The notes below the pieces were generated by a model. That model was given only the letters and a program-made list of their open reading frames with translations. It did no database searches and had not been told where the DNA came from. Positions 33,943-53,522 of a DNA stretch of 64,000 nucleotides are shown here, piece by piece. A program made the translations under genes and the position numbers. This stretch comes from Pseudobacter sp. (GTDB lineage Bacteria; Bacteroidota; Bacteroidia; Chitinophagales; Chitinophagaceae): positions 4,208-68,207 of the forward strand of contig JAFIGX010000007.1 in assembly GCA_017849455.1 (NCBI GenBank), read 5' to 3'. Numbering within the stretch: position 1 is the first letter of the stretch; each line of letters begins with the position of its first letter.

Positions 33943-34533
33943 ATGAAAAATTTGAGTAGCGATGTGATCACTCAATTCAATATGGGAAGTACCCAGGCTT
34001 TCTCAAAAATCTACAACTACTATCACAGGCAGTTGTTCTTTTTTGCCAGGCGCCTGATCACCGATACGCAGGAAGCCGAAGATATCGTGGCGGAATGTTT
34101 CATTAAAGTATGGAACAAGCGGGGCGATTTTCAGACCCTGCAAAACGTAAAGGCTTTTTTATTCATCGCAACCCGCAATGCCTGCTTCAACTTCTTAAAG
34201 GCTTCGCAAAGCCAGCATTCATCTCATAAAGAGCTGTTTTATTTGTCCGACGGGATCGATGAATCGGCAGTATTCCAGCAGGAGATCACAGCAGAACTGC
34301 TTCAGCTTCTGTATTCCGATATCGAGAACCTACCCCCCAAGCGAAGGAAGATCGTGGAAATGATCCTGCAAGGACTTACGGATTCACAGATCGCAGAGCA
34401 ATTGAACATTACTGCGAAAACGGTCCGCAACCAGCGGGCAAATGCCATTCAATTATTGAGAGAAGCCTTCCTGAACAGGGCGACCTATTTCCTGCTGATG
34501 ATCGTGGCGTTGATCAATTTTTTCAGACAGTAA
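33943..34533 (+). CDS. ECF-type RNA polymerase sigma-70 family factor
   Basis: Region 2 (EDIVAECFIKVWNKR) and region 4 HTH (LTDSQIAEQLNITAKTVRNQ). A FecR-like gene lies downstream. Confidence 0.88.
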   Translation: MKNLSSDVITQFNMGSTQAFSKIYNYYHRQLFFFARRLITDTQEAEDIVAECFIKVWNKRGDFQTLQNVKAFLFIATRNACFNFLKASQSQHSSHKELFYLSDGIDESAVFQQEITAELLQLLYSDIENLPPKRRKIVEMILQGLTDSQIAEQLNITAKTVRNQRANAIQLLREAFLNRATYFLLMIVALINFFRQ

Positions 34534-34794
34534 CGGTAAACCGGCTGTCGCCACCCACTTATTATCATTTCAAACCATCAATCCTTCCTGGAATTCATTG
34601 GGCACGTCGAAAATTTATTGACCGCCGACATCTTTTTTTTAAACCACTCTTCAATTGTTACGGGAACATTACTTTTTTTTTATTAATCAATTAATTCACC
34701 CGCCCTGTAAAAAATCCTTAAAAATTCTTTGGGCCGATTCATAGCATTTGTTGTTTCTATAGAAATGACAGGTGATAAATAGGATTTTTGAAAC

Positions 34795-36063: not shown

Positions 36064-36426
36064 CGCACTACTCCCGAAATAATATTCAGATAAGAGAAGT
36101 CTTATTCCTATGACAGACCAGGTTTCTGGTTAAAAAGAGCTCTGAATCCCGCGCTACTATTGCATCTCTTGACCAACGATGCCATTAAGACCCGCTATCC
36201 TTTTCAAAAGGGGCTTCGCGATAACTCTTGTTATGCCATTGAGCCATTAAATCTACCTATGCGATGCCATATCCGGGTATTCTGCCCGGCCTATGGCTAT
36301 TACATCGGCAAGAACATCATCTGAAAAACTGTTGGGTATTCGTTTGTACTAAGACGTAACCCAACAATTATTTAACCCTCCGGGATTCAACATGATTTTC
36401 AATTTCCCGGATCAACCTTGACTTTT

Positions 36427-39400: not shown

Positions 39401-39858
39401 GTGCAGTTATCAACAGTTTTAACTTCAAGAATATCCAGCTTACTGCTACCTTCTATTACCAGTATGGATTCCAGGTCAATACGTCAATGATGGTCAATGA
39501 TGGAGCGAATCCATTAATGAACCAGGACAAAAGCGCACTTGACCGCTGGCAAAAACCAGGAGATATTGCCACCAATCCTAAACGATTCATATACAATTAC
39601 ACCTCAAACGGATCGCGATATATTTATAATGGCGATTTTATACGCCTGCAGGACCTTTCTGTTAGCTATGATCTTCCCAAAAAAATCGTAAACCGGCTGG
39701 GGTTGACTACACTGAAAGTATACGCGAAGGCATATAACCTGGCGATCTGGACCCACTATCCAGGCTCAGACGTTGCCAATACCAATGTTCATGGTACAAA
39801 CGGCTTTTCTTATCCAAATCAGAAATCATATTCATTAGGGTTCAATCTCAATTTCTAA
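36427..39858 (+). CDS. SusC/RagA-family TonB-dependent transporter with N-terminal STN signalling domain (transducer type)
   Basis: The STN-like segment is LQEVFKDIQKQTSYAFVYN...ASLEAVLSLCF. A CarboxypepD_reg-like region (VKGKVTDEKLNPVAKATVLVKG), a plug and a barrel follow, ending ...SLGFNLNF. The start is uncertain: TTG at 36418, ATG at 36427 or ATG at 36487. Confidence 0.9.
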   Translation: MQFNAFCEGMRALPQQPAHAMTRKQSGCIRSSTRALSRLLFSVLLMMVAFSPVSAETPEPRITLSKKNSTLQEVFKDIQKQTSYAFVYNTEMMQQTKRVTINVKDASLEAVLSLCFRDQPLTYSIVDKIIVVQKKEKVVETPERDTAQSPDFPSLMNVKGKVTDEKLNPVAKATVLVKGTRKMTATDNNGEFTIDEVAANSVLVFTCVGFTPKEIPIRGNPNISAQLKVAVGNLDETVVVAYNTTTSRANTAAVTVVKGDQIANLPNRSFDKSLQGLVPGLLVTSGTGQPGGGVANFVMRGIATASDVVYNSTIRNPLIVIDGVPVTQEGYQWASSLEETPVINPIAQLNPSDIETISILKDAAAIALYGSKASNGVILVTTKKGKAGKTVIGFRHQTDIAQRLPGKLKLANQDEYLELLYETFRNSGFGNRDSLRSELYKQFPVRIHNGDTSFYPATNWEDEIYTNRAFTVSNELSISGGNEKTLFYMNLEYTKQNGVVKKTGFDRKSLRFNLDNRPTSWLKLGLNSTLSYSIQDYASLVGGDLPYGVASLTSPLNPVRLEDGNYLWNFTTPFFAANPAAQLEFNKNRNTSYRGLTKASAEVSFLKSFKLTTSLGADFMYLETKEKSDLRLYDSYTTSVGSGRIQERNSRYANLITTNTLAYDKTFSYDHNINVLLGQEAQILTTRFLEVIGTGFKIPTNDDISNAAQKTSSGLSTKQTLISYFGQLNYAFKNKYFLSSSIRKDGSSLFGERNRFGSYWSLGGGWIASSESFMNGTSSWLDYLKFRGSLGVAGNSFVIDRYTRYDLLQVSRYLGNLAVYNGRLGNPNIRWEKTFNWDVGVEARFWKQRISFTADIYKRKTSDVIFDINLPYTSGFTRVKDNIGDIENRGIELSLSIDIIKNRDFRWNLNANWSTNKNILVKANIPEFSSVDNLQNRVGKNFNSFYLVPWAGVNPDNGNPQYLDSAGKITSDFPVGKQNERYFGKPQPDGFGAVINSFNFKNIQLTATFYYQYGFQVNTSMMVNDGANPLMNQDKSALDRWQKPGDIATNPKRFIYNYTSNGSRYIYNGDFIRLQDLSVSYDLPKKIVNRLGLTTLKVYAKAYNLAIWTHYPGSDVANTNVHGTNGFSYPNQKSYSLGFNLNF

Positions 39859-39877
39859 TCTTTTCAAGCGAATCACT

Positions 39878-41302
39878 ATGAAGCGCAATCAATATCTATT
39901 AGCCAGTATTCTGACACTATTTATCAATATTTCCTGCAAAAAAGATTTCCTTGATGTTGTTGATCCTAATACTGCCACAAAGCAGGGATATATAGTCGAT
40001 CTCAAAGCAACAGGAGAATATTTAAATGGCATATATATTACAATAGCAACTCAATTATATTCTCAGAACGGCATAACCATCTATCCTGATATTATTGCTG
40101 ATAATATTAAATTGGTAAACGCAAGTGCACAATATTTTGCTCAGCCATACTATTGGTTGCAGGTTACATCAACGACGGCGACTGGTTCAAAGAATGCAAA
40201 TGTGATCTGGTTGAATGGTTACCAGATCATCCGATCCTGTAATCTTGTTATAGAGAAAGCGGAACAATACAAAAGTCAAAATGTGGAGCAGGCAAATGAT
40301 ATGAAAGCCCAGGCATTAGCTATTAGATCTTTGATCAATTTCCTGTTGGTAAATACATTCGCTCAGCCTTATCGGTTTACAGCAGACGGGGCTCATCCAG
40401 GCATCCCATATATAGTCAGTTCGGATTGGACGGTGCCTCTCAAAGGAAGACAGACCGTTGCAGAAGTTTATGCTCATCTTGTCTCGGACCTGAAGGACGC
40501 TCTACCAATGTTCTCTTCCTCCAGGAATAGTTTATACATGAACCAAAATGCCGCAAAGGCATTACTGGCAAGAGTTTATCTATTTAAAGAAGATTATTCC
40601 AATGCAAGAATTCTGGCAAATGAAGTTTGCCAGAAAGTTCCACTCATGGGAGGAGGTGCAGGTGGCTATCCTTCCAAACTGTTTACTCCCAATGAAACGG
40701 AAGCATTATTTCAATTGCCGCCCAGTAAAACAGATTATTCTACTCAATTTATCGCAGCAAATTTTTCGCCCACTTACTACGTACAGTTCCTTCCCACCTT
40801 GGATATTACGGGGATTCTACAGGAAAACCCTTCCGATAAAAGAAATGCGTGGATTACAAATACCGGCGGAAAATGGTATATCAGTAAATTCCCTTCAGGG
40901 GTGGTGCCCGGTGTCACACCTGCAGCGGGTTCTTATTATCAAACCATCTTGAGATCATCAGAAATGTATCTCACAGCCGCAGAGTCGTATGCAAAATTAA
41001 GTATTGAGGACAGTGCCAGGATCTATTTGGATGCTATTCGGTTAAGAGCTGTTCCTGATGCAGTGCCCTCTACTGCAACAGGGACTGCATTATTAGATTC
41101 AATTTATAAAGAGCGACGAAAAGAACTGGCATTTGAGGGAATAAGAATGTTCGACTTGCTTAGATGGGGAAAAGGGGTTGATAGAACAGACGCCTGGGTC
41201 CCAACGGCCAGGAACCTCCCTTTTCCTAGTCAAAAGGCAATTGCCCCTATACCACAGAACGATATTGAAGCATCAGGCCTCACTCAAAATCCCGGGTATT
41301 AA
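39878..41302 (+). CDS. SusD/RagB-family outer-membrane lipoprotein
   Basis: Lipobox LFINISCKK. C-terminal ...ERRKELAFEGIRMFDLLRWGK. Follows the SusC-like gene by 19 nt. Confidence 0.9.
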   Translation: MKRNQYLLASILTLFINISCKKDFLDVVDPNTATKQGYIVDLKATGEYLNGIYITIATQLYSQNGITIYPDIIADNIKLVNASAQYFAQPYYWLQVTSTTATGSKNANVIWLNGYQIIRSCNLVIEKAEQYKSQNVEQANDMKAQALAIRSLINFLLVNTFAQPYRFTADGAHPGIPYIVSSDWTVPLKGRQTVAEVYAHLVSDLKDALPMFSSSRNSLYMNQNAAKALLARVYLFKEDYSNARILANEVCQKVPLMGGGAGGYPSKLFTPNETEALFQLPPSKTDYSTQFIAANFSPTYYVQFLPTLDITGILQENPSDKRNAWITNTGGKWYISKFPSGVVPGVTPAAGSYYQTILRSSEMYLTAAESYAKLSIEDSARIYLDAIRLRAVPDAVPSTATGTALLDSIYKERRKELAFEGIRMFDLLRWGKGVDRTDAWVPTARNLPFPSQKAIAPIPQNDIEASGLTQNPGY

Positions 41303-41317
41303 CAAAAAAACATAAAT

Positions 41318-43903
41318 ATGAAATACAAATTAGCGGCAATTCTATTTTTGGCATTATCATTTCAAATATGCTACTCCCAGAGACAAGTAGGCCTCAGTCA
41401 TCAAAGGATTGTCATTGAATCTGTGATCCCTGAAAGTTTTCATACCTGGATGGCCGATCATCCTAAAAATGGTATTCCGTTGGAGTCAGCTAATCCAGAT
41501 TATATTACCCCGGATCCATCCTGGACTGTTAATGATGGAAAAGTTAAAGGTAATAAAGTAACGTGGATACTTTACTCAAACAATCCTGTAGCGATCCGGA
41601 TCCCTTTCCTGATCCAATCGGCATTTGTCTGTCCAGGAGATAGCATCTCTCTTTACTTTGAAGGTAAAGAGCCTGTATATTCCGGCAAGGGCAGCGAAGG
41701 GTTGAATCTGCAACGCAAACTAGAGCTTTATCACAAGAACTTACCGGAGCCAACCCCAAAGGGCTATGTTGTCCTGACATCTGTGGAAGATTACCTAAAA
41801 TGGGATAAATTCCTGGATGAACAGTCGGCATTTATCATTCCTCTTCTTGATTCTTATAAGAAAAGAATATCTCCATCCCTTTATGACCTTATTAAAAAGA
41901 ACGAATTAAAATATATAGAACATCAGCGAGCTGAAAGCCTTCTTTCTTTGAACAACCGCCGTGTGCTTTACAAAAATTCCGGGATAACACCCAACGACAT
42001 GATCACTCTTGCTGATACTAAACTGGATAAATCCCAGGCAGTATGGCTTAGAAATCAATCTGAACATTTTGGAGATCATGACGTCTGGTATTTCTTTCAA
42101 TATAACCGGATCCAGATTGCAAAAAAAGTAGGTTTCGATTTCACCAATGACAGTTTAGACAGGCCTGAGGTTTCAAGGTTGCTTTTTTACCAGACCCTGA
42201 AACAGCGTTATAAAGGATTACTCCGGGAAAGGCTTTTGCAATATTTGATTGCTGAAAGAGTAATCAAGAAAATGGGATACATGCATCCATTGACCTCAAA
42301 ACTCTTAAAAGATTATTACAGTCAGCCCGGCTTCCCTGAATATAAACAATGGATGCGAAATTTTGAGATCAAGGCCAGGAAACTGTATAACTATAATTCA
42401 AGTACAGGCGGGAATCTGGCGCCGGACTTTCAACTGGTCGATACAAAGGGAAACGTTTTTACCAAGTCAGATCTCAAAGGGAAAATAGTACTTCTTGATT
42501 TTTGGTTTTCGGGCTGCAAAGGTTGTGTGGATATGGCCCCGCAGCTCCGTAAGATTGAGGAAGAGTTCAAAAATGATCCTTCTATTGCTTTTGTGAGCAT
42601 ATCTACAGACCAGGACAAAGATCGCTGGCTTTTGAGCATAGCACAGAAAAAATATACTTCCGGCGGCGGGATCAATTTGTATACCGGAGGTCAGGGAATG
42701 AGGCATCAAATGCTAAAAGATTACAACATAACATCCTACCCAGAGTTGTATTTGCTGAATACTGAGGGAGAAATCGCTCAATATCCCTTACCGAATCCGA
42801 GAGGAGATAACGGGCTTGCATTGATAAATCTTATAAAGAAAAAACGTGCAGAGCTGAATGATGGGCCCTATATTCTGTATGAAAAGACTGACACAATGTC
42901 CATAAACTATATAAACCCGTTAACAGGAAGAATTACTGAGGAAAAACAAATAGCTCCGTTGACGCTGTCTATCGGAACAGATAAATACCCAGAAACTTTT
43001 TCTGTACAGCTAAAAACAGAATTACAAAATGAACCTTCAATTTATAATGAGCCTTCAAAGCAACTGGTAGTTTCAGATATTGAAGGCAACTTTGAGGCCC
43101 TCCGGAAATTATTGCAGGCCAGTAAAGTAATTGATTCGAAATATAACTGGATATTCGGCAATGGGCACCTGGTATTTGTAGGCGACATGTTTGATCGGGG
43201 CCAACAGGTAACAGAGTGTCTATGGCTTATTTATTCCCTTGAAGAAAAAGCCAAAAAAGCTGGAGGCTATATCCATTTCATTTTAGGGAACCATGAGATA
43301 CTTAACCTTTGTGGAGATTTTCGTTATACACAAAAAAAATATACACAAAACGCCAAATTACTTAACGAGGATTATAAATCCTTATATGGCTGTAATAGTG
43401 AATTAGGCCGATGGTTAAGAACCAAAAACATTATGGAAAAAATCGGAAATATTTTATACACACATGGAGGGATTTCCAGAGAAGTAAATAACCTATCCCT
43501 CACACTGCCTGAGATCAATGCGCTAATACGCCCTTATTATGCGGATAGAGATAATTTCAAGCAAAATAAAAAAAATCCGGAGTTGAATGTATTGTTTAAT
43601 AGTCAGACCTCTCCCTTCTGGTATAGAGGATACTATAAGAACGAAAACCAAATTCCAATCATAGACAGCACTCTGCAGAAATTTGGTGTCAGGCGGGTTA
43701 TTACAGGACACACAATAATTGCAGATACAATTAGCCTGCATCATAATGGCAAAGTGATCGATATCGATACCCATCATGCAGACGGCAAATCCGAAGCTTT
43801 GTTGATTGAGGATGAAAATTTTTATCGGATAACACCTACAGGAGAAAAAGTGTTGCTGTTAAAGAATGATAAGCTTTTTGCCATAAGGGGGCGGACAAAT
43901 TAA
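41318..43903 (+). CDS. Exported three-part fusion: unknown N-terminal domain (~360 aa) + TlpA-like thioredoxin fold + PPP-type (calcineurin-like) metallophosphoesterase
   Basis: Signal peptide MKYKLAAILFLALSFQICYSQ. Thioredoxin motif VLLDFWFSGCKGCVDMAP (CKGC at 42515-42526). Phosphoesterase motifs VVSDIEGNF, VGDMFDRG, LGNHE and GHT from ~43060 onward. Confidence 0.78.
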   Translation: MKYKLAAILFLALSFQICYSQRQVGLSHQRIVIESVIPESFHTWMADHPKNGIPLESANPDYITPDPSWTVNDGKVKGNKVTWILYSNNPVAIRIPFLIQSAFVCPGDSISLYFEGKEPVYSGKGSEGLNLQRKLELYHKNLPEPTPKGYVVLTSVEDYLKWDKFLDEQSAFIIPLLDSYKKRISPSLYDLIKKNELKYIEHQRAESLLSLNNRRVLYKNSGITPNDMITLADTKLDKSQAVWLRNQSEHFGDHDVWYFFQYNRIQIAKKVGFDFTNDSLDRPEVSRLLFYQTLKQRYKGLLRERLLQYLIAERVIKKMGYMHPLTSKLLKDYYSQPGFPEYKQWMRNFEIKARKLYNYNSSTGGNLAPDFQLVDTKGNVFTKSDLKGKIVLLDFWFSGCKGCVDMAPQLRKIEEEFKNDPSIAFVSISTDQDKDRWLLSIAQKKYTSGGGINLYTGGQGMRHQMLKDYNITSYPELYLLNTEGEIAQYPLPNPRGDNGLALINLIKKKRAELNDGPYILYEKTDTMSINYINPLTGRITEEKQIAPLTLSIGTDKYPETFSVQLKTELQNEPSIYNEPSKQLVVSDIEGNFEALRKLLQASKVIDSKYNWIFGNGHLVFVGDMFDRGQQVTECLWLIYSLEEKAKKAGGYIHFILGNHEILNLCGDFRYTQKKYTQNAKLLNEDYKSLYGCNSELGRWLRTKNIMEKIGNILYTHGGISREVNNLSLTLPEINALIRPYYADRDNFKQNKKNPELNVLFNSQTSPFWYRGYYKNENQIPIIDSTLQKFGVRRVITGHTIIADTISLHHNGKVIDIDTHHADGKSEALLIEDENFYRITPTGEKVLLLKNDKLFAIRGRTN

Positions 43904-44134
43904 TTCAGATATTCAGAGTTCCTGAGATTCCCTGAAATCGCCAAATCCCGGTTGCCTTTGGTAGCCGGGATTTTCAATTTCTTTTTCTTAATGAACAGGT
44001 CAACCACCTGATTTCTATTGATCAAAATGTAATATTCCGCCGCAGTTATAATGCAGCCGACATTACTAATTTTAATGTTATAACTATCAGGCCAGTGGTT
44101 ATAAATATTTTCTAACATTAAAAATTTAGTAATC

Positions 44135-44467
44135 ATGAAAAATTTATCAGTCCAAAAACTGTCCATTCTGGGTCTAGTACTGATGGGTGCTTCAGCTGTT
44201 ACTGCTGCAGTAATGCCTAAAGCAAAACAAACTATTCCTCCAGGTGAATTGAAGTTCATTTCAGCCAGAGCTGGTGTCAATCAATGGACATGTAAACCAG
44301 TTGTTTCTGTATTTAATTGTGATTATACAGCAACTGATGGTGTGAAAAGCTTTACATCTGCTGCTCCTGCCACTACCAGTCTTAACGGACCAACAACTGG
44401 AGTAGACGGTCAAAATACAGGCCTCATACCTGATGCAGCACATAATAACATTAAGAGATCAAGCTAG
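44135..44467 (+). CDS. Small (110 aa) signal-peptide-bearing two-Cys, Ser/Thr-rich protein, paralog A
   Basis: ATG start. The Sec-type N-terminus is MKNLSVQKLSILGLVLMGASA|V. It aligns gap-free over nearly its whole length with the ORF at 47097-47432. Conserved blocks are TCK, NCDYT.TD and SLN.PTTG.DG.NTGL. Confidence 0.6.
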   Translation: MKNLSVQKLSILGLVLMGASAVTAAVMPKAKQTIPPGELKFISARAGVNQWTCKPVVSVFNCDYTATDGVKSFTSAAPATTSLNGPTTGVDGQNTGLIPDAAHNNIKRSS

Positions 44468-44486
44468 TCGTTGCATTTCTTGGCAT

Positions 44487-44531
44487 CAATGGAATAACCT
44501 TTCAAATTCAATCTGAAAAGTTATTCCATTG
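44487..44531 (+). terminator. Hairpin directly downstream of small-protein gene A
   Basis: caatggaataac-(21 nt)-gttattccattg is a perfect 12-bp stem starting 20 nt after the stop codon. There is no strong T-tract, so it could be a partial terminator, an attenuator or a processing site. Confidence 0.4.
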
Positions 44532-44590
44532 AACTTATAAACGATATTTTCATTCGCAAGCAGCCCATTCGTCAGTCTAAAGAAAATCCT

Positions 44591-45688
44591 ATGCGATATA
44601 TATTATTCTTATCCCTGGCAGGAATAGCATTGGCCAGTCAAATCAATTGTTCAATGAAGGTCAAGGAAAGAAATTCCATCAGCACTAGAGGCCCAAGCAT
44701 TATCATTGAGAGTCGACTGCCTGATAATTATGCAAGGTATATAGCAAATCCTTACGATGAAGATATTACAGAACTCGGCTGGATGCCAGTAAATAATATC
44801 GCACTTCGGACTGATTGGAGAGTAGAAAAAGAATTTATTAGGGACAATAAATTAAAATGGATTATATATTCCGATAAGCCAGTGATATCCCATTCGGCTC
44901 TCCTTGGGTACGGGGTCTTCATAAATCCGGGAGATAGCGTTTGCATTATTCCAGAGAAGGATGGTTATAAATATTCTGGCAAAGGGGTTGATGGACTAGA
45001 ACTGCAAGCCAGGATTAGCAAACTCCAAGGTGGAATAAAGAAGCCATCACAAGATCATGATCAATTCGTTAATCTTGACAATTATATGGAATGGAAAAGG
45101 TACCTGGACAAGCAATTGGAATTAATTCTACCTGCCATCGACTCTTACGAAAGGAAAATACCGTCTGCTATATTCAATCTGATAAAAACCCATGCTATCA
45201 ATAGAATTGAAAAGGAACGAACGGAAGTATTCATGAGCTTTATAAATTACAAGACCAGGTATAAGGCAGAAGACCTAACCTTATTTGATTATGTAGCCAT
45301 TTTTGATTCAACCATGAACGGTCCAGCGTCACAGTGGTTAAGATCATACTCAGACTATGAAGGTGATCCATGGTTTTTTTACCAGTATACAAGGATCAAG
45401 GTTTGGAAGAAATACAATTTTGATTTCAGCCATGACAGCTTGGATGATAATAATAAAAGAGTGGATTATTACAGATCCATTAAAGAAGACTTCAAAGGAT
45501 TGCTTAGAGAAAAATTGCTCCAATATACAATTGCACAAGATATAATCAAGGGGTTGCGGTTTGCCCATCCTAAGACTGATAGTATCCTGAACGACTATTA
45601 TAAACAGCCTGGCTTTCCAGAATATAAACAATGGATGAGGAGCTATGAGGATAGCATGAGAATTAAATTTGCAAGCTTAAAAAAATAA
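44591..45688 (+). CDS. Exported protein homologous to the N-terminal domain of the 861-aa fusion protein
   Basis: It has a signal peptide. It is colinear with residues ~30-365 of the 41318-43903 product. Example pairs: YSGKGVDGLELQ vs YSGKGSEGLNLQ, and LLREKLLQY...DYYKQPGFPEYKQWMR vs LLRERLLQY...DYYSQPGFPEYKQWMR. Confidence 0.65.
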   Translation: MRYILFLSLAGIALASQINCSMKVKERNSISTRGPSIIIESRLPDNYARYIANPYDEDITELGWMPVNNIALRTDWRVEKEFIRDNKLKWIIYSDKPVISHSALLGYGVFINPGDSVCIIPEKDGYKYSGKGVDGLELQARISKLQGGIKKPSQDHDQFVNLDNYMEWKRYLDKQLELILPAIDSYERKIPSAIFNLIKTHAINRIEKERTEVFMSFINYKTRYKAEDLTLFDYVAIFDSTMNGPASQWLRSYSDYEGDPWFFYQYTRIKVWKKYNFDFSHDSLDDNNKRVDYYRSIKEDFKGLLREKLLQYTIAQDIIKGLRFAHPKTDSILNDYYKQPGFPEYKQWMRSYEDSMRIKFASLKK

Positions 45689-45701
45689 ACTTTTCAAAGT
45701 A

Positions 45702-46940
45702 ATGCAACCAAGCAGCGTATTCATGAAGGAAGTTATGAAAATTTGGCGAGGTCCAAGAAAAATAGGATGCCCCTACTTACCTAACGTCGTATTACTGGCG
45801 TTAATATTGGCAGCAAATTTCGGCTGCAAGAATAATGCAGAAACCTCTCCCAGCAAATACAATTATATTAAACCTCAATATGACCAGGTCGGATTGAATT
45901 CATCAGCCGATACTATGACCTTCGCACTGGGAGAAAGCACGTACACCGATATTAAATCATTTAACCTCTTTGTTCAAAATGACACAGAATATATATCATT
46001 CTACGATCAGCGTTCGCAGACAATAAATATCTATAATTTTCAATCTCAGCAACAGGTAAAAAAAATAAAACTGAAGAGAACATTCTCTAGTGCTCAATTA
46101 TTTAAAACCACTGTTTTTACCCGGAATTTCGACAGTATTTTAGTCAACAACCAAGCTACATTTTACCAATTAGATTCTAAAGGAAAGATCAATAAAACCA
46201 TCGCCTTCCTTAAAAATCCTCCATTATCCTGGGCAGTTTTCCAAAGTACCAGTCTTCCGGTTTTTAAAGGCAGCCAGATTTATGCTCTTGTACGACCTTA
46301 CGTTAAAGAGCGGTCTCTAAAAGCATTAAAGGAATGGAGGGTATTATACAGGTTCGATTTGCAAAATGAAAAAGCAAACCTCATTTATAATTTACCTGAG
46401 ATATACCAGAAATACATCTATGGCTTCCATTTCCTGGACTACAATTATTGTTATAATGATCATGGCAATTTCGTATTCAGTTTTCCTGCAGATTCCAATA
46501 TCTATGAAACGAATCTCGAAAATTATCATATTGCCTATTATGGTAGAAGCCAGTTTCAAAATGGCCCTATTCAACCAGCCTCTGAACAGGATATATCAAA
46601 GAGTGATGATGAGTATAGAAATTTCTTAAAAAAAGATTCCTATGGCCCCATTTACTTCGATCCTTACATGAAGCGATACCTTCGGGTGTCAAGGTCCGGG
46701 ATCAGAAATACAGATCTTGAAGCAAAAAACTGGCGACAACAGGAGCGCCTTATCATTTTTGATGATGGATTTAAGATCATCGGGGAATCGAAAGTAGACG
46801 ATGAAATTTTACTCAATACAATATTTTTTACCAGGGATGGTAACATATTCGCGAGAACCAGATCTAATGATGAATATGCGCTCCACTTTGTACGCATGAA
46901 GTATGAAGAAAATATCAAGCTTCCCCTTACAAAGAAATAA
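45702..46940 (+). CDS. Lipoprotein of unknown function (possibly DUF4221 / 6-bladed beta-propeller-like)
   Basis: Lipobox LILAANFGCKNN. Asn/Tyr/Phe-rich sequence of about 400 aa. The family assignment is tentative. The start could be 45702 or 45735. Confidence 0.45.
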   Translation: MQPSSVFMKEVMKIWRGPRKIGCPYLPNVVLLALILAANFGCKNNAETSPSKYNYIKPQYDQVGLNSSADTMTFALGESTYTDIKSFNLFVQNDTEYISFYDQRSQTINIYNFQSQQQVKKIKLKRTFSSAQLFKTTVFTRNFDSILVNNQATFYQLDSKGKINKTIAFLKNPPLSWAVFQSTSLPVFKGSQIYALVRPYVKERSLKALKEWRVLYRFDLQNEKANLIYNLPEIYQKYIYGFHFLDYNYCYNDHGNFVFSFPADSNIYETNLENYHIAYYGRSQFQNGPIQPASEQDISKSDDEYRNFLKKDSYGPIYFDPYMKRYLRVSRSGIRNTDLEAKNWRQQERLIIFDDGFKIIGESKVDDEILLNTIFFTRDGNIFARTRSNDEYALHFVRMKYEENIKLPLTKK

Positions 46941-47096
46941 ACCAAAGTTCCTAATACTATCTTAAAGCAGCTCGCCATCTAAATTGTTCATAAAGATAAT
47001 ATTATACTGCGGCCTGAGTGCAGGTGTCTTGACTATTTTAGTACCTAAAAGTGGTCGTGGCTATTAATACTTTACAAAATTCTTAAACTAAATACC

Positions 47097-47432
47097 GTGA
47101 AATACTTATATGGCCAGAAATTATCCCTCTTAGGGTTGGTTTTAATGGGCGCTTCCTCCATTACGGCGGTAGTAGTTCCTACAAAAAAATTTTCATTTAG
47201 TCAATATGGACAATTAATGCTCATTTCTAAAAGAGGAGGAATAATACAATTTACCTGCAAAGCAGCATTTAGTTTAATAAACTGCGATTATACAATAACA
47301 GATAACGCATTGTATAGCTGGACTTCCTATGTTGCTGCAACATCAAGTCTCAATGCACCAACTACAGGTATTGACGGTGACAATACAGGGCTACGCGACG
47401 CGAATGGTGATGGGATTCGTACATCAAGCTAG
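47097..47432 (+). CDS. Small (111 aa) signal-peptide-bearing two-Cys, Ser/Thr-rich protein, paralog B
   Basis: The GTG start is supported by alignment to paralog A (MKYLYGQKLSLLGLVLMGASS|I). It shares the same conserved blocks: TCK, NCDYT.TD, SLN.PTTG.DG.NTGL and a terminal SS. Confidence 0.6.
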   Translation: MKYLYGQKLSLLGLVLMGASSITAVVVPTKKFSFSQYGQLMLISKRGGIIQFTCKAAFSLINCDYTITDNALYSWTSYVAATSSLNAPTTGIDGDNTGLRDANGDGIRTSS

Positions 47433-47489
47433 GCGGCTTAAGAACAAATCCATATTCAACTTATAATGATAATTCATAACTACTCAGAT

Positions 47490-48014
47490 ATGAGAACAAA
47501 AACAGTTTTGTGGGTTCTCTTACTAGCTTCTGCCTGTGGCAAACCCAAACAAAATAGTATTGAATTGATCACCATTCCCGAAAAGCAATCGTCTTTATTC
47601 CAGGATTTAGTGGCGATTACGGGAAAAACGATACCTGATACACTTCTTTCCGATTCATTGGCTTTCCTAATATTACCTGTACAGGCAAGTTGCCCTGCCT
47701 GTCGAAAAAAAACCATTGATAGCATTGCTAAACATCAGAGCGACCTGAACGATAACCATTATATCATCGTTTCAGCCAATGGCGGGCGCAGGGCTATCCG
47801 GGGATATTTCCAGGAACAGAACCATGAACTTCCTGATATCCCTGGTAAATTTTTTATGGACAGTCTAAACCTCGCATATCAGCGTAACCTTTATGTGAAT
47901 AAACCTACCATTTACTTTACTTATAACAGAAAAGTCTACAAGAAAGTAGCTGCAATCCCGGCAACTGTACGTGACGATCTTAGAGAATTTTTTTCAGGGT
48001 ACAGAGATAAATAG
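47490..48014 (+). CDS. Thioredoxin-fold-like lipoprotein with CPAC motif
   Basis: Lipobox LLLASACGK from the Met at 47490. LPVQASCPACRKK (CxxC). Its position corresponds to the thioredoxin segment of the 861-aa fusion. Confidence 0.5.
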   Translation: MRTKTVLWVLLLASACGKPKQNSIELITIPEKQSSLFQDLVAITGKTIPDTLLSDSLAFLILPVQASCPACRKKTIDSIAKHQSDLNDNHYIIVSANGGRRAIRGYFQEQNHELPDIPGKFFMDSLNLAYQRNLYVNKPTIYFTYNRKVYKKVAAIPATVRDDLREFFSGYRDK

Positions 48015-48035
48015 TCCATATCCTGGCAGGAATAT

Positions 48036-48950
48036 ATGTATAAAAAAATAAACATAGCACTCAGCATTCCCAATGCAGATAGACCTGACAGATATTTTGC
48101 TTTCCGGTTACAGCAATGCTTGTCCAATGAACCAGCACTATATGAGATGCCCAGCAGATTATTCGTGGTCTCTGACATTGAAGGAAACTTCCAACCTTTC
48201 TGCCATATATTGATGAGATGGAAGATCATCGATAAATATTTTCAATGGATATATGAGGATGGGCACCTTGTTGTACTTGGCGATTGTTTTGATCGGGGGG
48301 AGCAAGTTACTGAATGCCTGTGGCTGATCTATTCACTGGAAGAAGGCGCCAGAAGAGCAGGTGGGCGTGTTCATTTTATTCTGGGCAATCATGAAATCAT
48401 GAACCTTAATGGCGATTGGCGGTATGTTCATCCCAAGTACGCATACAATACTTCTTCCTTCCACCTTTCCCCAACTGCATTATATGATGCTAACAGTGAG
48501 TTATGGCGATGGCTCTGTACAAAAAATATTGTAGAAAAAATAGGCAATGTACTTTTTGTTCATGGGGGAATTGCCCCTGCACTTCTGGAATATAACCTGT
48601 CTGTACCGGAGATCAATGAAGTAGCCCGGCCGTGGTTCACCAAAGCCAACGGATCGTTCACGGATCAGTTATTGCACCTTCTTTTTAGTGGTGAGGATTC
48701 TCCTTTCTGGTATCGAGGTTATTATAATGGATTGATTACAGAAGAAATTATAGATGTTATCCTGGCAAGATTTGAAGTTACTACAATAATCACAGGTCAT
48801 ACCATGGTGGAGCAGGTACGTAGTTATTTCAATGGTAAAGTAATTAATGTGAATACAGATCATGCCAGTGGAAATTCAGAAGGGCTGGTTATTACAAAAA
48901 ATCAGCACTTTTACCGGGCGATGGATAAGAAGAGAGAAAGAATCAAATAG
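48036..48950 (+). CDS. PPP-type (calcineurin/Shelph-like) metallophosphoesterase, stand-alone paralog of the fusion protein C-terminus
   Basis: Motifs VVSDIEGNF, LGDCFDRGEQVTECLWLIYSLEE, ILGNHE and ITGHT. It is clearly colinear with residues ~570-861 of the 41318-43903 product. No signal peptide is visible. Confidence 0.8.
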   Translation: MYKKINIALSIPNADRPDRYFAFRLQQCLSNEPALYEMPSRLFVVSDIEGNFQPFCHILMRWKIIDKYFQWIYEDGHLVVLGDCFDRGEQVTECLWLIYSLEEGARRAGGRVHFILGNHEIMNLNGDWRYVHPKYAYNTSSFHLSPTALYDANSELWRWLCTKNIVEKIGNVLFVHGGIAPALLEYNLSVPEINEVARPWFTKANGSFTDQLLHLLFSGEDSPFWYRGYYNGLITEEIIDVILARFEVTTIITGHTMVEQVRSYFNGKVINVNTDHASGNSEGLVITKNQHFYRAMDKKRERIK

Positions 48951-48956
48951 TAAAAT

Positions 48957-49796
48957 TCAAAATTGAATAGGCTCCTCGGGCATTCCTTCAGTTGATGTGA
49001 TACTTAGAACATTTGCATTGCTCCAATCGCATAATACTAATTCATAGCGGGTCAGTACCTGCATCAATTCATCATCCGCGCTCTCAAGCCTGGTAATGCA
49101 TAATGAGCCAATATAGCCACTTCTCAGAATGCCATAGTATATATAGTTTTCCGTTCGGATCGAAAAACCATTTTCTACATACCCATGGCCTGCTAAAAAG
49201 ACATTACCCGGTTCCGAGGCACCAACTAATTGACAAAAAAATCCAAAGGGTAAGTCGAGGGAGTTCTTTTCCGATCTTGAAAACTGCTCTTGATAACCCA
49301 GTAGCGCATCCTGTTGGTTAACCAAAATCGATCTAATGGCTCCGATCTCACTTTCAATCTCTGGTAATGAAGTCAATGGCAAAAACTCCAGGTTTCGCCA
49401 GTCGGCCACATTTAATTCTACAGTACGATCCCCGTACATAGGGTTAACGCATATTCCAGGTAGTTCACAGATAGTTGGCGAGCTATGGCGGAACTGAATT
49501 GGGTCTGCGAAGGCAGCATTCTGAACATGCAGAGTAAGCTTTTTACGGTATTGAAATTCATCTGCCAACACAGGATTTGCTTTTAATACCCGCCACTTCG
49601 TATTATCCAGTTCAATGATAGTAGGCTTGTCAAAGCCCGAAGGCAGGATATCGGCCATCAACTTATACTTGCCTATTATATTGTTAGTAACGGCATCAAC
49701 CAGTATTACTGTTATTTTCTTAGGAAATAACATTATTGCAGAGCCAATAATTTTTGCATAATTCATAATACCATTATTATTTAGCGTACCAAGCAT
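48957..49796 (-). CDS. Hypothetical protein (279 aa), translationally abutting the kinase-LanC gene
   Basis: Long ORF whose start codon (49796) directly abuts the stop of the upstream gene (49797). No motif is recognised. Confidence 0.55.
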   Translation of the reverse strand: MLGTLNNNGIMNYAKIIGSAIMLFPKKITVILVDAVTNNIIGKYKLMADILPSGFDKPTIIELDNTKWRVLKANPVLADEFQYRKKLTLHVQNAAFADPIQFRHSSPTICELPGICVNPMYGDRTVELNVADWRNLEFLPLTSLPEIESEIGAIRSILVNQQDALLGYQEQFSRSEKNSLDLPFGFFCQLVGASEPGNVFLAGHGYVENGFSIRTENYIYYGILRSGYIGSLCITRLESADDELMQVLTRYELVLCDWSNANVLSITSTEGMPEEPIQF

Positions 49797-51953
49797 TTAT
49801 ATCAGCATCGGAAATCCTATTACATCCGGGTAACAATACCGCAGCAAAAAGTGTAGTACACCACTGTTTCCTGTCATAAAACTCGCTGTCGGATGACGTT
49901 CATGTTCTACAAGCCAATAAGGGCCGGATTTCTCATCTTGCTTTTGCAATTGCATAATTATCTGGGATATCCAACCTGCCCTATGCAGCCATTCCTCATC
50001 CTTAAAGACTCGCCATGCTTCCAGATATGCCTCTCCAACACCACTAAGTCCATAACTCTGCCCAAGATTGTTATCAATGATCTCCCCAGGGATGTTTTTC
50101 AAGGCGCTAACTGCATATTGTTTATAAACCGGTTCATTAGTAATTTGCCAAGCCTTCATAAATGAAAGGGCAATGCCGGAAGCCCCGCCTGTCCACCAAT
50201 ATGAAAGTTCTTTACCTTTTGATGAATTCCACCAGATGCCTCCATTTTTGTGAATAGCTTTTTTCATCAACCACTGCATCCCCCGAATTGCAGATTTTGT
50301 ACTGGTCTCATCATTATAGGAATGCCCATACTCCAGTAAAAAGTAAAGGATGCCAGCCATCCCCTCCACAAACCCCCGTGTTATTTTGTTCATCTTCCTT
50401 TTAGTAATTTTTTGTTGATAATTCCCGAAAATCCAATAACCATCATACTCCTGTTTTTCCAATAAGAAACGTACATACTGTTCTATTCGCTCTTGTATTT
50501 TCTGGGAACTGCAGAGGGGTTTTGCAATAAGATTGGCAATGCCTTGTCCGGCTACACCAGACAAAATACCCAGGGAATCACTTGTTCTCGCCAATAATTG
50601 ATCAATCCAATCTAAATATTCAGGTGAAGGTTCTACCAGTTTGTTCCGGATCGCCGTTGCCAATGAAGCTGCAATGCCATCAGATCCAAAATGCAAACCG
50701 GTATTGGCAGATTCTATTCTATTAATATATTTTTCCCGAATTCGTTCCAGACCTAACTGAACAAAGGGTAGTGCAGTTTGCACATCCAATCCAACATATT
50801 TAGCCTGGCTTATCATATAAATTATCCCACTATCCCCACGATTAAAGCTGGCATACCACATTTTACTAAGCTTATGTTTATCCATATCTGGGGTGGGCTT
50901 CATGTTTTCTGCAAACCAGCCTTTTTCCGGATCAGCCATTAAAGGAGATATCATCGTTCTGATGGATTGTTGAACGATTGACAAAATATCCTCCCTATCA
51001 TAAAATACCGAAGATGACGAATGCCTGGAAACGTCATACCTGATATCAGTTTTGTATTGTTGGAGCGTCCGCCTGACCACCTTTGCAGAAGGCCTGACGG
51101 TCGCATCCGGTTGCATACACCGTATTATCAACTCCCCTATCTCCTGGTCCGTGACCAGGAAATGAACTTTCCGCGATAATGATTCCAATGATTCATTCGT
51201 GAACTTGAGTGGCGATATCCCCGTCCACACCTGCAGCATAATTGCCCCCAATGCATAAATATCCTCCGCGGTAGTCGGCGTTTCAGTAACCTCTTGCTGG
51301 GGCGACATATACCCATAAGTCCCCAACTGAAATGCCGGCGTTGGAAATTGTTCTTTCACGGAATAACACATTTCCATATCGATCAATGCCACCTTTCCGC
51401 CAGGAGTGATCATGTAATTATTAGGAGTAGCATCCCGATGCACTACCTGTTGACTATGGAGAATATCCAGAATGTCCGCTATCTGTATCAGGTAATCCAA
51501 CACTTTCATCCCTTTCTTACCCCCGGTGATGATCGATTGTCTCAATTCCTTCCTCCACTCAGAACATATTTTCTGCAATGGCTTTCCCCGTATATGTTCG
51601 ATCACCAGGTAATAATTCCCATTTTCTTCAAAAGTGCCTAACAACCGGGGCATCCGCACTTTATCCTGTAAGAGCTCATGCAATTGTTTCTGCCATTTCA
51701 ATCTGTCGATAATATCACGCCCCTGCTTGTCTTTCGTATCACCATAAGTTCCTTCCTTGATCACACAAAATCCAAAATTGGTAAGACTTTTGATATACAG
51801 GCACTTCACTACATCATTCTTCTGACTTTCCTTATAACTTTTGATGATAATGTAATTGTACCCTACGCGCTTACCACTTTTCTTTTCCACCTTACCTTTT
51901 ATCTCCTGCTCGACAGGGGCATCGCTGACATGTGTTACGGTGGCAATTTTCAT
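49797..51953 (-). CDS. Ser/Thr protein kinase fused to a LanC-like (lanthionine-synthetase C-like) alpha-toroid domain; no lyase domain
   Basis: The kinase motifs are CVIKEG (LanKC-type Lys region), VVHRDATPNNYMI (HRD...N), LIDMEM and GTYGYMSPQQ. The C-terminal half has repeated LanC-type Gly-rich helix starts: GVAGQGIANL, GMAGILYFLLE, GGASGIALSF, GLSGVGEAYLE and GNSGVLHFLL. Confidence 0.85.
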   Translation of the reverse strand: MKIATVTHVSDAPVEQEIKGKVEKKSGKRVGYNYIIIKSYKESQKNDVVKCLYIKSLTNFGFCVIKEGTYGDTKDKQGRDIIDRLKWQKQLHELLQDKVRMPRLLGTFEENGNYYLVIEHIRGKPLQKICSEWRKELRQSIITGGKKGMKVLDYLIQIADILDILHSQQVVHRDATPNNYMITPGGKVALIDMEMCYSVKEQFPTPAFQLGTYGYMSPQQEVTETPTTAEDIYALGAIMLQVWTGISPLKFTNESLESLSRKVHFLVTDQEIGELIIRCMQPDATVRPSAKVVRRTLQQYKTDIRYDVSRHSSSSVFYDREDILSIVQQSIRTMISPLMADPEKGWFAENMKPTPDMDKHKLSKMWYASFNRGDSGIIYMISQAKYVGLDVQTALPFVQLGLERIREKYINRIESANTGLHFGSDGIAASLATAIRNKLVEPSPEYLDWIDQLLARTSDSLGILSGVAGQGIANLIAKPLCSSQKIQERIEQYVRFLLEKQEYDGYWIFGNYQQKITKRKMNKITRGFVEGMAGILYFLLEYGHSYNDETSTKSAIRGMQWLMKKAIHKNGGIWWNSSKGKELSYWWTGGASGIALSFMKAWQITNEPVYKQYAVSALKNIPGEIIDNNLGQSYGLSGVGEAYLEAWRVFKDEEWLHRAGWISQIIMQLQKQDEKSGPYWLVEHERHPTASFMTGNSGVLHFLLRYCYPDVIGFPMLI

Positions 51954-52035
51954 ATACGAAGTTTACTCACCAATTTACATTCCCTTACTGCATCCTTATT
52001 GCAGTCCTTTGTTACGATTAGATGATCTCAGGTTA

Positions 52036-52269
52036 TCAGTTTTTTCGTTGAAAAGAAATATTGAAACTCCCCTCCTGGTCATAATAATAGCTCTGCCTGT
52101 AGCTGTTGAATTTTATGGGAGCACCGAATTCTTTCATCAAATTCAGGTATTCATACACACTTCTTTCTGAAATACCCAGCTTATTGGCCAGCTCTGTCGG
52201 TGTGCCCGTGGCTTTGATGCGTATAAGCTGGTCAATTCGTTCCAGACGTTGAAATATTTCTCTTTGCAT
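52036..52269 (-). CDS. Small helix-turn-helix protein (HTH_11/DeoR-N-like)
   Basis: 77 aa with ...GTPTELANKLGISERSVYEYLNLMKEFG... It overlaps the 3' end of the MauE/DoxX gene by 38 nt. Confidence 0.6.
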   Translation of the reverse strand: MQREIFQRLERIDQLIRIKATGTPTELANKLGISERSVYEYLNLMKEFGAPIKFNSYRQSYYYDQEGSFNISFQRKN

Positions 52270-52699
52270 AAGATAGGTTTTTATTGATTCGGCGATACTT
52301 TGTTTCCAGGATAATGGCGATGCTGCTCAATACAACAAAGAAACTGTTGAATACGATATGAACTCCCCACGACATCTCTTCCAGTACACCCCCGCAGGAG
52401 CATGGGATATCCGATCCCGATAGTAACATGGCTGCTATATAAACGGTAAAAAGGAACATCAACACGAAGGAAGCATAGAGACCTGCCAGCCGGGTCACCG
52501 GCAGCAGGAGCATTATTGCAATACAGATCTCGGTGGCAGGTACCAGCCAGGCCAGGATGCCTGCAAATGGGGCTATATAAGGAGACTCGCTGAGACCAAA
52601 CTGAAAATTGGCGTAATCGGCCAGTTTGGCCCAGGCTGCATACACGAACAATAGGATATGAAGCAGGGAGGCGATCCCCACAAAGATTTTCCTGGTCAT
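52232..52699 (-). CDS. MauE/DoxX-family redox-associated membrane protein
   Basis: Four predicted TM helices and the characteristic SDIPCSCGG motif in the third or fourth helix region. Confidence 0.7.
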   Translation of the reverse strand: MTRKIFVGIASLLHILLFVYAAWAKLADYANFQFGLSESPYIAPFAGILAWLVPATEICIAIMLLLPVTRLAGLYASFVLMFLFTVYIAAMLLSGSDIPCSCGGVLEEMSWGVHIVFNSFFVVLSSIAIILETKYRRINKNLSYAKRNISTSGTN

Positions 52700-53171
52700 A
52701 GCTAAATTTTCAGAATGTTGAAGAGTTGTTATCTAAGGATACGATGCTATAATTTTTAACTGCCGGATAAATGTTCATCGTCCGCTGTCTGTTGTCTTTC
52801 ATTAACAGACAAACGAAGTATGGCTACCGGAACAGGCCATGCAGAGGGATGCATGTTGATCATTTATTGAGGGTACTGGTTTCTGCGGAGGCATAACCAG
52901 TGAATAACAATATAAATTTCCACCCGGATCGACCCTGTTTAGTTATGAAATCGGGAGTAAATTCCATACGAAAATGGCAAATATTGAAAACTTAACATTG
53001 ACCTAAGGGTTTGTCTCTACCAATCCCTAGAACATTTCAGATAGATATTTTGTCGATCGCATATTGGATTTTCCAGTTCGTTCCTCATTATCCCTCCTGG
53101 AATTATTCACACCCTGTGATTAAGTTAATTTGACTAAACCTCCTTGTCGGTTTACGTTTGCAGTCGCTCTT

Positions 53172-53392
53172 TTACCGCAATTGTGCTGGTTCCTGCGCCG
53201 GTCAGCCGGCCAGGATTAAAAGGGAACCATGTGAAAATCATGGGCTGTTGCGCAACTGTAAGTTTTACACCCCACTTATTACAGCTGAACTTCAGGCCAC
53301 TGTGCCCCTGGTAAATGGCATGGGAAGGCGTTCAGCCGTCCGCCGCAAGGCGGGTAAAACAAGTCAGGATACCTGCCGGTACGATCTGTGCT
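53172..53392 (+). ncRNA. Cobalamin (adenosylcobalamin) riboswitch upstream of nrdB-nrdA
   Basis: The conserved blocks occur in the canonical order. They are ggttcc, ttaaaagggaacc, gtgaaaatc, gctgttgcgcaactgtaag, ggccactg, gggaaggc and the B12 box aagtcaggatacctgcc (53361-53377). The element ends about 130 nt upstream of the nrdB ATG. Confidence 0.85.
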
Positions 53393-53522
53393 AAAACCTT
53401 CGCATTAAAGGTAAATGCATCACTTTAAAATGTCAGTTTGGCTTTATTCCCCATAAAGCCCAGGCATATTATCGCTGTTCATTTCCCCATGCGCGATCCA
53501 ATGAATATTAAAAAGTGATAGT

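Follow-up and report, generated by a model that had tools for sequence, protein, structure and literature searches.

The 64-kb stretch of Pseudobacter sp. DNA analysed here (the window; 64,000 nucleotides) carries two paralogous genes for small proteins of about 110 amino acids (aa), copies A and B, within a conserved cluster of 15 genes. We read these small proteins as Sec-targeted (exported or membrane-anchored), disulfide-looped, dedicated clients of the cluster, with an N-terminus that is read by one of its components; judging from sequence, we assign this reading a probability of roughly one half. Family membership, protein architecture, synteny, the motif states of the enzymes and the parity of the cysteine counts were demonstrated.

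Copies A and B are old duplicates under purifying selection

44135..44467, + strand: small protein copy A, 110 aa, ATG start; n-region 1–8, hydrophobic segment 9–27, Pro28, core with C53/C62, serine/threonine (S/T)-rich tail
47097..47432, + strand: copy B of the small protein, 111 aa, starting at GTG; the more diverged of the two (Y5, S21, I22, V25)

Both open reading frames (ORFs) were confirmed, each with exactly two cysteines separated by 8 residues (C53/C62 in copy A, C54/C63 in copy B) and an S/T-dense second half (14/55 residues in copy A, 15/56 in copy B), as a preliminary description of this DNA had reported. That description also claimed a gapless alignment over almost the full length; the paralogy held (62/112 identities, 55%, E 2e-38 by BLASTP), whereas strict gaplessness did not, given three one-residue gaps. 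All of the conserved blocks that it listed are present in both copies, but TCK, NCDYT.TD and SLN.PTTG.DG.NTGL, which are specific to this pair, and the terminal SS are not features of the wider family. Furthermore, the GTG start of copy B, which had been considered backed by paralogy only, is also backed by the profile of the family, whose alignment to copy B begins with its first residue (E 2e-28); the first in-frame ATG occurs only at M17.

In codons 2–28 the two copies are saturated at synonymous sites (proportion of synonymous differences, pS, 0.89) with a nonsynonymous proportion (pN) of 0.14, which therefore indicates protein-level selection on old duplicates; after codon 28, pN/pS is ~0.53. 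Copies A and B are protein-coding genes that have been maintained by purifying selection. A DNA or RNA element behind the N-terminal conservation was ruled out, since synonymous sites are saturated and Rfam gave no match there. A family hidden Markov model search of the 64-kb window returned no third copy.

A near-invariant N-terminal module precedes a hypervariable core

A profile search of 1.84 billion representatives (50% identity clusters) defined a family of at least 338 clusters at E ≤ 1e-3 (204 at E ≤ 1e-10), with lengths of 85–154 aa throughout; a word-indexed search alone recovered 17 relatives. The small proteins had no match in Pfam even at E ≤ 10 or in NCBIfam at E ≤ 0.01, family members are named "hypothetical protein" in their sources (e.g., Niako_2698 of Niastella koreensis GR20-10), and literature searches returned no description of the family or of the gene cluster.

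Statistics over 156 family sequences revealed a sharply two-part protein. The n-region follows the pattern x-K-x-S-x-[KR]-K, with a net charge of +2.8 in the 8 residues before the hydrophobic segment and +1.0 after it, and 140/150 members have Ser or Thr at position 5, with basic residues flanking it. The hydrophobic segment is 19 residues long in 156/156 members (mean Kyte-Doolittle hydropathy 2.24), and positions S10, L12, G13, L14, V15, L16, A19, S20, A21, V22, T23, A24 and A25 are near-invariant (Ala at A19 in 151/156, Ser at S20 in 154/156, Ala at A21 in 152/156), as is P28, kept in 156/156. Residues 10–28 have near-zero entropy; per column it stays under 1 bit up to P28 and exceeds 3 bits immediately beyond. 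The core beyond that proline is hypervariable and acidic, rich in S/T/N/G/A/D and poor in Lys/Arg, and retains only short motifs, namely [ST]-C-x6-13-C-x-x-[ST] ([ST] directly before the first Cys in 144/145, [TS] three residues after the second in 140/145) and N-[TS]-[STG] ~9 residues from the C-terminus (126/156 members). Across 11 shared loci, residues 9–28 are 83% identical and the core 24%; in the same loci, the signal peptides of neighbouring genes are 18–29% identical and the PPP catalytic domain described below 59%.

The N-terminus has a basic n-region, a hydrophobic h-region and A-S-A at −3/−1, so that the Sec signal peptide proposed in the preliminary description is borne out in its architecture. 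An ordinary signal peptide it is not: its identity far exceeds that of the neighbouring signal peptides, and the conserved residues continue for another 7 positions beyond the putative cleavage site (A21|V22), up to P28. Because of this identity and of the constraint reaching P28, we conclude that residues 1–28 would act as a targeting signal combined with a specific recognition element. A type IV pilin-like signal was ruled out, as neither a G-F-T-L-I-E-type site nor Glu5 is present.

Past P28, 145/156 members have two cysteines, 11/156 have four and none (0/156) has an odd number; in the four-Cys members the extra residues form a pair, one ~10 residues past P28 and the other at the extreme C-terminus. 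These even counts and paired gains therefore favour a disulfide and export over thioethers, and the small proteins are predicted to be exported with the Cys pair closed as a disulfide. The conserved cluster encodes no ABC exporter or leader peptidase, and most + strand neighbours of the small genes carry a signal peptide or lipobox.

We also examined glycosylation motifs across the family. The Bacteroidetes O-glycosylation motif D-[ST]-[AILVMT] is unenriched (91 observed, 93±8 expected) and was set aside; N-x-[ST] is enriched (387 observed, 282±15 expected), and the conserved cluster contains no glycosyltransferase.

The small genes belong to a cluster conserved across Chitinophagaceae

We compared the neighbourhoods of ~17 loci, reached separately from the small protein and from a kinase-LanC protein. 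On the + strand, the cluster runs from an ECF sigma factor through FecR, SusC (with an STN domain) and SusD to a ~860-aa protein (N-domain, thioredoxin-like (Trx) domain, PPP-type phosphatase domain), 1–4 tandem small genes, in some loci a 365-aa N-domain paralogue, then DUF4221, a ~180-aa CPxC lipoprotein and a ~303-aa PPP paralogue; on the other strand lie a ~270-aa uncharacterised protein, kinase-LanC, HTH_11 and usually MauE. The window copy, including copies A and B, spans 33943–52699, with these further genes:

33943..34533, + strand: ECF sigma factor, first cluster gene (Pfam Sigma70_r2, r4_2); same position in L001 and L006
34795..36063, + strand: FecR-type anti-sigma factor (Pfam FecR, FecR_C); orthologues in L001, L002 and L008
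36418..39858, + strand: SusC-like TonB-dependent transporter with N-terminal STN (Pfam STN, CarboxypepD_reg, Plug, TonB barrel); orthologues 47–57% identical in all loci
39878..41302, + strand: SusD-like lipoprotein (Pfam SusD-like_3, SusD_RagB)
41318..43903, + strand: secreted 861-aa fusion of a ~350-aa N-domain, a Trx-like domain (CKGC) and a Shelph/CAPTPase-type PPP domain (Pfam Thioredoxin_8, Metallophos)
44591..45688, + strand: secreted 365-aa N-domain paralogue, optional (BLASTP to N-domains); present in ~6/13 loci
45702..46940, + strand: DUF4221 lipoprotein (Pfam DUF4221; PDB 3s9j, E 4e-18); lipobox Cys in orthologues
47466..48014, + strand: CPxC lipoprotein, 182 aa, or ~175 aa from the likely start M at 47490; lipobox in all orthologues
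48036..48950, + strand: 304-aa PPP paralogue without signal peptide (Pfam Metallophos); ~49% identical to the periplasmic PPP domain
48957..49796, − strand: uncharacterised cytoplasmic protein, 269–279 aa (likely start 49766), abutting the kinase-LanC gene
49797..51953, − strand: Ser/Thr kinase fused to a LanC-like domain, 718 aa (Pfam Pkinase, E 9e-19; LANC_like)
52036..52269, − strand: small HTH_11 regulator (Pfam HTH_11); orthologues 58–88% identical in all loci reaching this position
52232..52699, − strand: MauE/DoxX-type redox membrane protein (Pfam MauE, E 8e-32); orthologues ~70% identical

From the small-protein query, the same cluster was recovered in L001–L009 and at least one further contig, that is, in every locus with enough flank. 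Similarly, the kinase-LanC alignment led to small genes and the cluster in all metagenome loci whose flank was long enough, L010, L011 (identical to L012), L013 and L015, and the cluster was also present in Niastella koreensis (L021), Chitinophaga filiformis (L022) and L023. Homologues of the small proteins thus neighbour thioredoxin, PPP and kinase-LanC genes in essentially every locus with enough flank, the association that the preliminary description had proposed to look for. As to its view of the small proteins as the most plausible substrates or cargo of the block, the neighbourhood shared throughout with Trx-PPP, PPP, kinase-LanC and SusC/D supports them as dedicated partners. The hosts named in the sources all belong to the Chitinophagaceae (Niastella, Paraflavitalea, Longitalea, Chitinophaga, Pseudoflavitalea and Terrimonas). 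A scan of a genome collection with one peptide pattern and tblastn of the variable core had returned one Terrimonas metagenome-assembled genome only, a sensitivity artefact; the kinase search then placed the cluster in Niastella, Chitinophaga, Paraflavitalea, Longitalea and Pseudoflavitalea.

The start of the cluster resembles a polysaccharide utilization locus (PUL), with ECF sigma factor, FecR, SusC with STN and SusD in tandem, an arrangement repeated in L001, L002 and L023. The kinase-LanC protein, the 279-aa protein and HTH_11 lack export signals. From these features, the cluster appears to be divided between a cytoplasmic side, with the kinase, the pseudo-phosphatase and the regulator, and an envelope side, with the transporter, the putatively active phosphatase and the CPxC lipoprotein; the small proteins are plausibly the only encoded products able to cross from the first to the second.

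Several loci depart from the common layout. In Chitinophaga filiformis (L022), four tandem small genes lie in the reverse orientation to the operon around them (15965–17819, +), and a fifth, divergent small gene adjoins HTH/AraC genes (8683–9048, −). Some loci also carry, between the PPP paralogue and a 261-aa uncharacterised gene, a gene whose 111-aa product is rich in Lys and Ala and has an HTH-like region at its C-terminus (L002 14242–14577, −; L021 13133–13468).

In the window, copy A is bracketed by two hairpin-forming elements, which suggests that it may lie on a separate transcript or on a stabilised processed transcript:

43943..43973, + strand: terminator-like hairpin and T-run in the gap between the fusion gene and copy A; also inverted repeat I8
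44486..44532, + strand: inverted repeat I1, 23-nt arms, 91% complementary, directly 3' of the copy A stop codon

The kinase-LanC protein keeps a kinase and a LanC-like scaffold

Against the LanL model NF038150, the kinase-LanC protein scored 268 bits (cut-off 650), with an alignment that begins at model position 188, paired with query residue 31; against the LanKC model NF038151 it scored 152 bits (cut-off 575). The part of the LanL model before position 188 is thus unmatched, so that an OspF-like lyase domain is missing. Where LanL 8car has FCQG and QCCG at its zinc ligands, the window protein has WWTGG and QSYGLSG; the zinc ligands of NisC are C284, C330 and H331, and class III cyclase domains function without zinc (PMC8341899).

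We extended this comparison to 121 relatives of 673–753 aa. None contains a lyase domain, and 121/121 share the same kinase motifs (the Lys of YIKS, HRDxxxxN and D[ML]E) without variation, whereas the Cys-Cys-His zinc set (WC.G and CHG) is kept in only 12/121. Both zinc motifs, as WWC.G and QCHG, are retained in the protein of L004 10700–12952 (−), and also, e.g., in P0215, P0216 and P0220, still without a lyase. The zinc site thus seems not to have been missing at the outset but to be eroding within the family, and the motif record indicates that selection has preserved the kinase and the LanC-like scaffold.

RamC_N (PF25816) did not match the window kinase-LanC protein and was seen only on a separate, additional gene in L006 (11124–12503, +), which encodes 459 aa with a LanL/RamC_N-like lyase domain and a kinase, without a cyclase. 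The catalytic set of the VenL lyase domain is K51, H53, R83 and Y108, of which the Lys/His pair is needed by both VenL and SpvC (PMC2843593). The L006 protein was rejected as evidence of dehydration, as this pair is lost (GWKIHLS in 8car, GWIVFIS in L006). A stand-alone LanC-like ORF, ~25% identical to the LanC part of kinase-LanC, occupies the usual MauE place upstream of the HTH gene in L016 (2268–3632, +).

The 279-aa protein was similarly considered as the missing lyase. It has only 7 homologues, is absent in L007, and gave nothing in Pfam or in PDB sequence and profile searches; its AlphaFold2 (AF2) model (mean predicted local distance difference test, pLDDT, 69.5) had no Foldseek PDB match better than E 0.04 / TM 0.2. 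A lyase role is unsupported, as the protein shows no similarity to OspF or to a solved fold, although it may have a novel fold. On the defining features tested, membership in lanthipeptide class III or IV fails, and lanthipeptide maturation by kinase-LanC appears unlikely because the lyase is absent and the zinc ligands are kept in only 12/121 relatives.

Phosphatase and redox proteins of the cluster

The 861-aa fusion carries an N-terminal signal peptide as read from its sequence, and its PPP domain has a close homologue in the cold-active protein-tyrosine phosphatase of Shewanella (PDB 2zbm/1v73, E 1.4e-65). GDMFDRG and GNHE are invariant in 11/11 orthologues of this periplasmic PPP; motif I reads SDIEGNF in 11/11 loci, with the His of the canonical GDxHG replaced by Glu. 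The 304-aa paralogue lacks a hydrophobic N-terminus and is present in every locus covering its position. Its catalytic motifs are degenerate in ~6/11 orthologues (e.g., SGFEGDF, GNCFDKEG, GPHE; L001, L006, L010, L011, L013, L015), and it looks like a cytoplasmic pseudo-phosphatase kept for binding.

The preliminary description had assigned disulfide handling to adjacent thioredoxin-fold proteins. This is only partly borne out: the CPxC lipoprotein has an invariant CP[AS]C motif in 11/11 loci, but the Trx domain of the fusion lacks CxxC in 5/11 orthologues. The lipoprotein is probably thioredoxin-like, with non-significant PDB matches to thioredoxins (E 0.24–1.5) and no Pfam match. MauE is frequent and is absent from L006, L013, L016 and L022. 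For the ~350-aa N-domain and its 365-aa paralogue, Pfam and PDB searches gave no match, and a PDB profile search with DUF4221 returned only the uncharacterised DUF4221 structure 3s9j.

A proposed route for the small proteins

These results suggest the following sequence of events. The cluster would be turned on via ECF-sigma/FecR/SusC(STN) signalling. The N-terminal 28 residues of the small protein would then provide both Sec targeting and a handle for a cluster component, which would recognise it before export or else in the membrane, as a helix residing there for a time or permanently. The cytoplasmic, LanL-derived kinase, which would have kept the kinase and a peptide-binding LanC-like scaffold and lost the lyase and mostly the zinc site, may phosphorylate the S/T-rich small protein, and no thioether rings would be formed. 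The core would come to sit in the periplasm, where the Cys pair closes a short disulfide loop, a step probably served by the CPxC lipoprotein, with MauE where present; the Shelph-type phosphatase may remove phosphates after export. The most economical chemistry, we infer, is that the kinase adds phosphate and the periplasmic phosphatase takes it off. This proposal draws on the kinase motifs, unvarying in 121/121 relatives, and on the likeness of the periplasmic PPP to a characterised protein phosphatase, with GDMFDRG and GNHE kept in 11/11 loci. A prodrug-like or export-competence role for such a phosphate cycle is speculation.

A number of observations weigh against this proposal. Export, cleavage, the disulfide and the phosphate are all deduced from sequence, and AF2 of copy A (18-sequence alignment) gave a pLDDT of 48, with no usable fold and no N-terminal helix; the core is probably disordered. 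A conserved leader, a hypervariable core and tandem copies form the classic pattern of precursors of peptides that are made by ribosomes and modified after translation (RiPPs), and kinase-LanC descends from leader-binding enzymes; 12 of its relatives keep the zinc set, and L006 adds a lyase-kinase gene. Phosphorylation in the cytoplasm followed by dephosphorylation in the periplasm has no obvious purpose. The closest characterised phosphatase is reported to be Tyr-directed, yet Tyr makes up 0.5% of the cores. Import by SusC/D is left unaccounted for. Finally, the four-Cys member P0006, on a 5-kb contig, lies downstream of three DUF6266 genes and not of SusD/Trx-PPP, which may represent a second genomic context of the family.

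Alternative explanations

An unlikely alternative is that the small proteins are uncleaved single-pass membrane mini-proteins. Their 19-residue transmembrane helix would pack against FecR, MauE or a Sec/YidC-associated factor through small-xxx-small faces (S10, G13, S20/A21, A24/A25), with the cytoplasmic tail (x-K-x-S-x-[KR]-K, Ser5 as kinase site) as kinase target and the periplasmic tail as tether or sensor. The constant length and high hydropathy of the segment fit this arrangement, as do conservation through Pro28, beyond any cleavage site, and the invariant polar or small residues S10, G13, S20 and T23 inside a hydrophobic stretch. A Ser/Thr at position 5 between basic residues would suit a kinase substrate, with the kinase and the PPP paralogue on the same, cytoplasmic side. 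However, a canonical A-S-A site follows an h-region of normal length, position 5 of copy B is Tyr, at least 4 loci lack MauE, no partner helix was identified, and the core motifs and the putatively always-active periplasmic phosphatase are left unaccounted for.

Improbable, in our estimation, is that the small proteins are RiPP precursors, with the N-terminus as a cytoplasmic leader for kinase-LanC, core Ser/Thr that undergo phosphorylation and then elimination through an unrecognised lyase (e.g., the 279-aa protein or the PPP paralogue), and the two Cys closed into (methyl)lanthionine or other thioether rings of a class III/IV-like lanthipeptide. This explanation accounts well for the contrast between leader and core conservation, for 1–4 tandem, diverging precursors per locus and for the S/T residues beside both cysteines, [ST]-C and C-x-x-[ST]. 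The enzyme is a LanL homologue of which some relatives retain Cys-Cys-His, class III cyclases need no zinc (PMC8341899), extra genes for a lyase-kinase and a LanC-like protein occur in L006 and L016, and hairpins such as those around copy A are often seen at precursor genes. Set against this, a lyase domain was found in 0/121 kinase-LanC relatives, of which ~90% have lost the zinc ligands; the sole lyase-like domain found (L006) lacks the Lys/His pair; and the 279-aa protein is unlike OspF or solved folds and is missing in L007. Furthermore, Cys numbers are strictly even with paired gains, the 19-residue hydrophobic Sec-type segment is unlike soluble amphipathic RiPP leaders, and an exporter and a leader protease are absent from the cluster.

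A bolder extension of the favoured reading is a long shot. Here the lanthipeptide-synthetase descendant would be a dedicated kinase and the leader would double as a Sec signal; a multiply phosphorylated, disulfide-looped mini-protein would be released to the envelope or the medium, sensed and recaptured by SusC/D-STN-FecR-ECF sigma, and stripped of phosphate by the periplasmic Trx-phosphatase. If true, this would amount to a ribosomal, secreted-and-reimported phosphopeptide acting as a signal, metallophore-like shuttle or prodrug, and to a RiPP-like class set by phosphorylation rather than thioethers.

Very unlikely, lastly, is that these are ordinary small secreted proteins of a PUL-like locus (e.g., for accessory binding in SusC/D import), unlinked to the kinase-LanC operon and conserved at the N-terminus through recent descent: the small genes do lie inside the + strand SusC-to-PPP operon, their inversion in Chitinophaga filiformis indicates some independence, and any modification is deduced from sequence, but descent alone cannot explain cores that have diverged beyond BLAST recognition while residues 9–28 stay 83% identical, and wherever the flank is long enough kinase-LanC, HTH and the small genes are found together, from either query.

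Comparison with known systems

The nearest known systems are the class IV and class III lanthipeptide pathways. With class IV (LanL, e.g., VenL, SgbL; LanA) it shares a 718-aa protein best matched, over both domains, by the LanL model and 8car, and multi-copy precursor-like genes with a conserved N-terminus and a variable C-terminus containing Cys and Ser/Thr; it differs in the absence of an OspF-like lyase, zinc ligands, transporter and protease, in the low model score (268 bits vs 650), in the hydrophobic Sec-like N-terminus and in a Cys parity that points to disulfides. With class III (LanKC, e.g., LabKC, AciKC, RamC) it shares a kinase with a zinc-less LanC-like domain and S/T-rich precursors with few Cys, but a RamC_N-type lyase is absent and the LanKC match (152 bits) is weaker than that to LanL. 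Class III precursors carry the labionin motif S-x-x-S-x-x-x-C and leader motifs of the (I/L)(L/F)(D/E)LQ type, and neither is visible in the small proteins. In prochlorosin-type systems, one enzyme serves many precursors with soluble conserved leaders, which are cleaved at GG by a dedicated exporter; the invariant N-terminal module, hypervariable cores and several paralogues per locus are alike here, whereas the module is membrane-targeting and no such exporter is encoded.

Other likenesses concern secretion and uptake. Methanobactin operons, with the precursor MbnA, the TonB-dependent MbnT and the FecI/FecR-like MbnI/MbnR, are the nearest in architecture, as RiPP operons under FecI/FecR control with TonB-dependent re-uptake, and offer a precedent for secretion followed by re-import. 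The cluster similarly places a Cys-containing ribosomal precursor beside a TonB-dependent transporter and ECF-sigma/anti-sigma signalling; it differs in having unrelated enzymes (no MbnB/C) and a product that would be ~80 aa long, and gives no sign of metal binding or re-uptake. Serine-rich repeat glycoproteins of Gram-positive cocci (accessory Sec) combine a conserved specialised signal peptide and Ser/Thr richness with cytoplasmic modification before export. They differ in phylum, in size (>1000 aa vs ~110 aa) and in being glycosylated, and SecA2/SecY2 genes are absent here.

Two further comparisons concern single enzymes. The Shewanella cold-active protein-tyrosine phosphatase (PDB 1v73, 2z72, 2zbm) has two close homologues here, the 304-aa paralogue and the last domain of the 861-aa protein, with GDxxDRG and GNHE in common; D-I-E-G stands for D-V-H-G in all 11 periplasmic orthologues, where the domain is fused to a Trx-like and a ~350-aa domain. 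MauE/MauD, acting with the small subunit of methylamine dehydrogenase (MADH), set a precedent for a private disulfide-handling pair. In the cluster, MauE (Pfam MauE) and a thioredoxin-like periplasmic partner likewise lie beside a small exported Cys protein, but without a MADH, MauG or tryptophan tryptophylquinone context, with MauE missing in several loci and with a client of one or two disulfides.

Other features of the window

53170-53394, + strand: cobalamin riboswitch, 88 bits
53523-54488 and 54527-56914: class I ribonucleotide reductase small and large subunit genes
61182-61255, + strand: tRNA gene, Rfam 68 bits

The riboswitch lies directly upstream of the ribonucleotide reductase genes, which suggests B12-dependent repression of a B12-independent ribonucleotide reductase.

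Significance

The small-protein family (at least 338 clusters), the 279-aa protein, the ~350-aa N-domain and the CPxC lipoprotein are without functional annotation, and the cluster is directly testable, as it is present in the cultured type strains Niastella koreensis GR20-10 and Chitinophaga filiformis. The N-terminus of the small proteins, an exceptionally conserved signal-like segment beside a hypervariable body, offers a test case for signal peptides that are informative beyond targeting. Taken as a whole, the cluster is a system derived from a lanthipeptide synthetase in which thioether chemistry has probably been given up and Sec-type substrates taken on. If this is true, it would represent an evolutionary off-ramp for a class IV-type synthetase, which would have lost its lyase, with a decaying zinc site, and whose kinase and peptide-binding scaffold would have been kept and wired to Sec clients and to TonB-dependent uptake and signalling.

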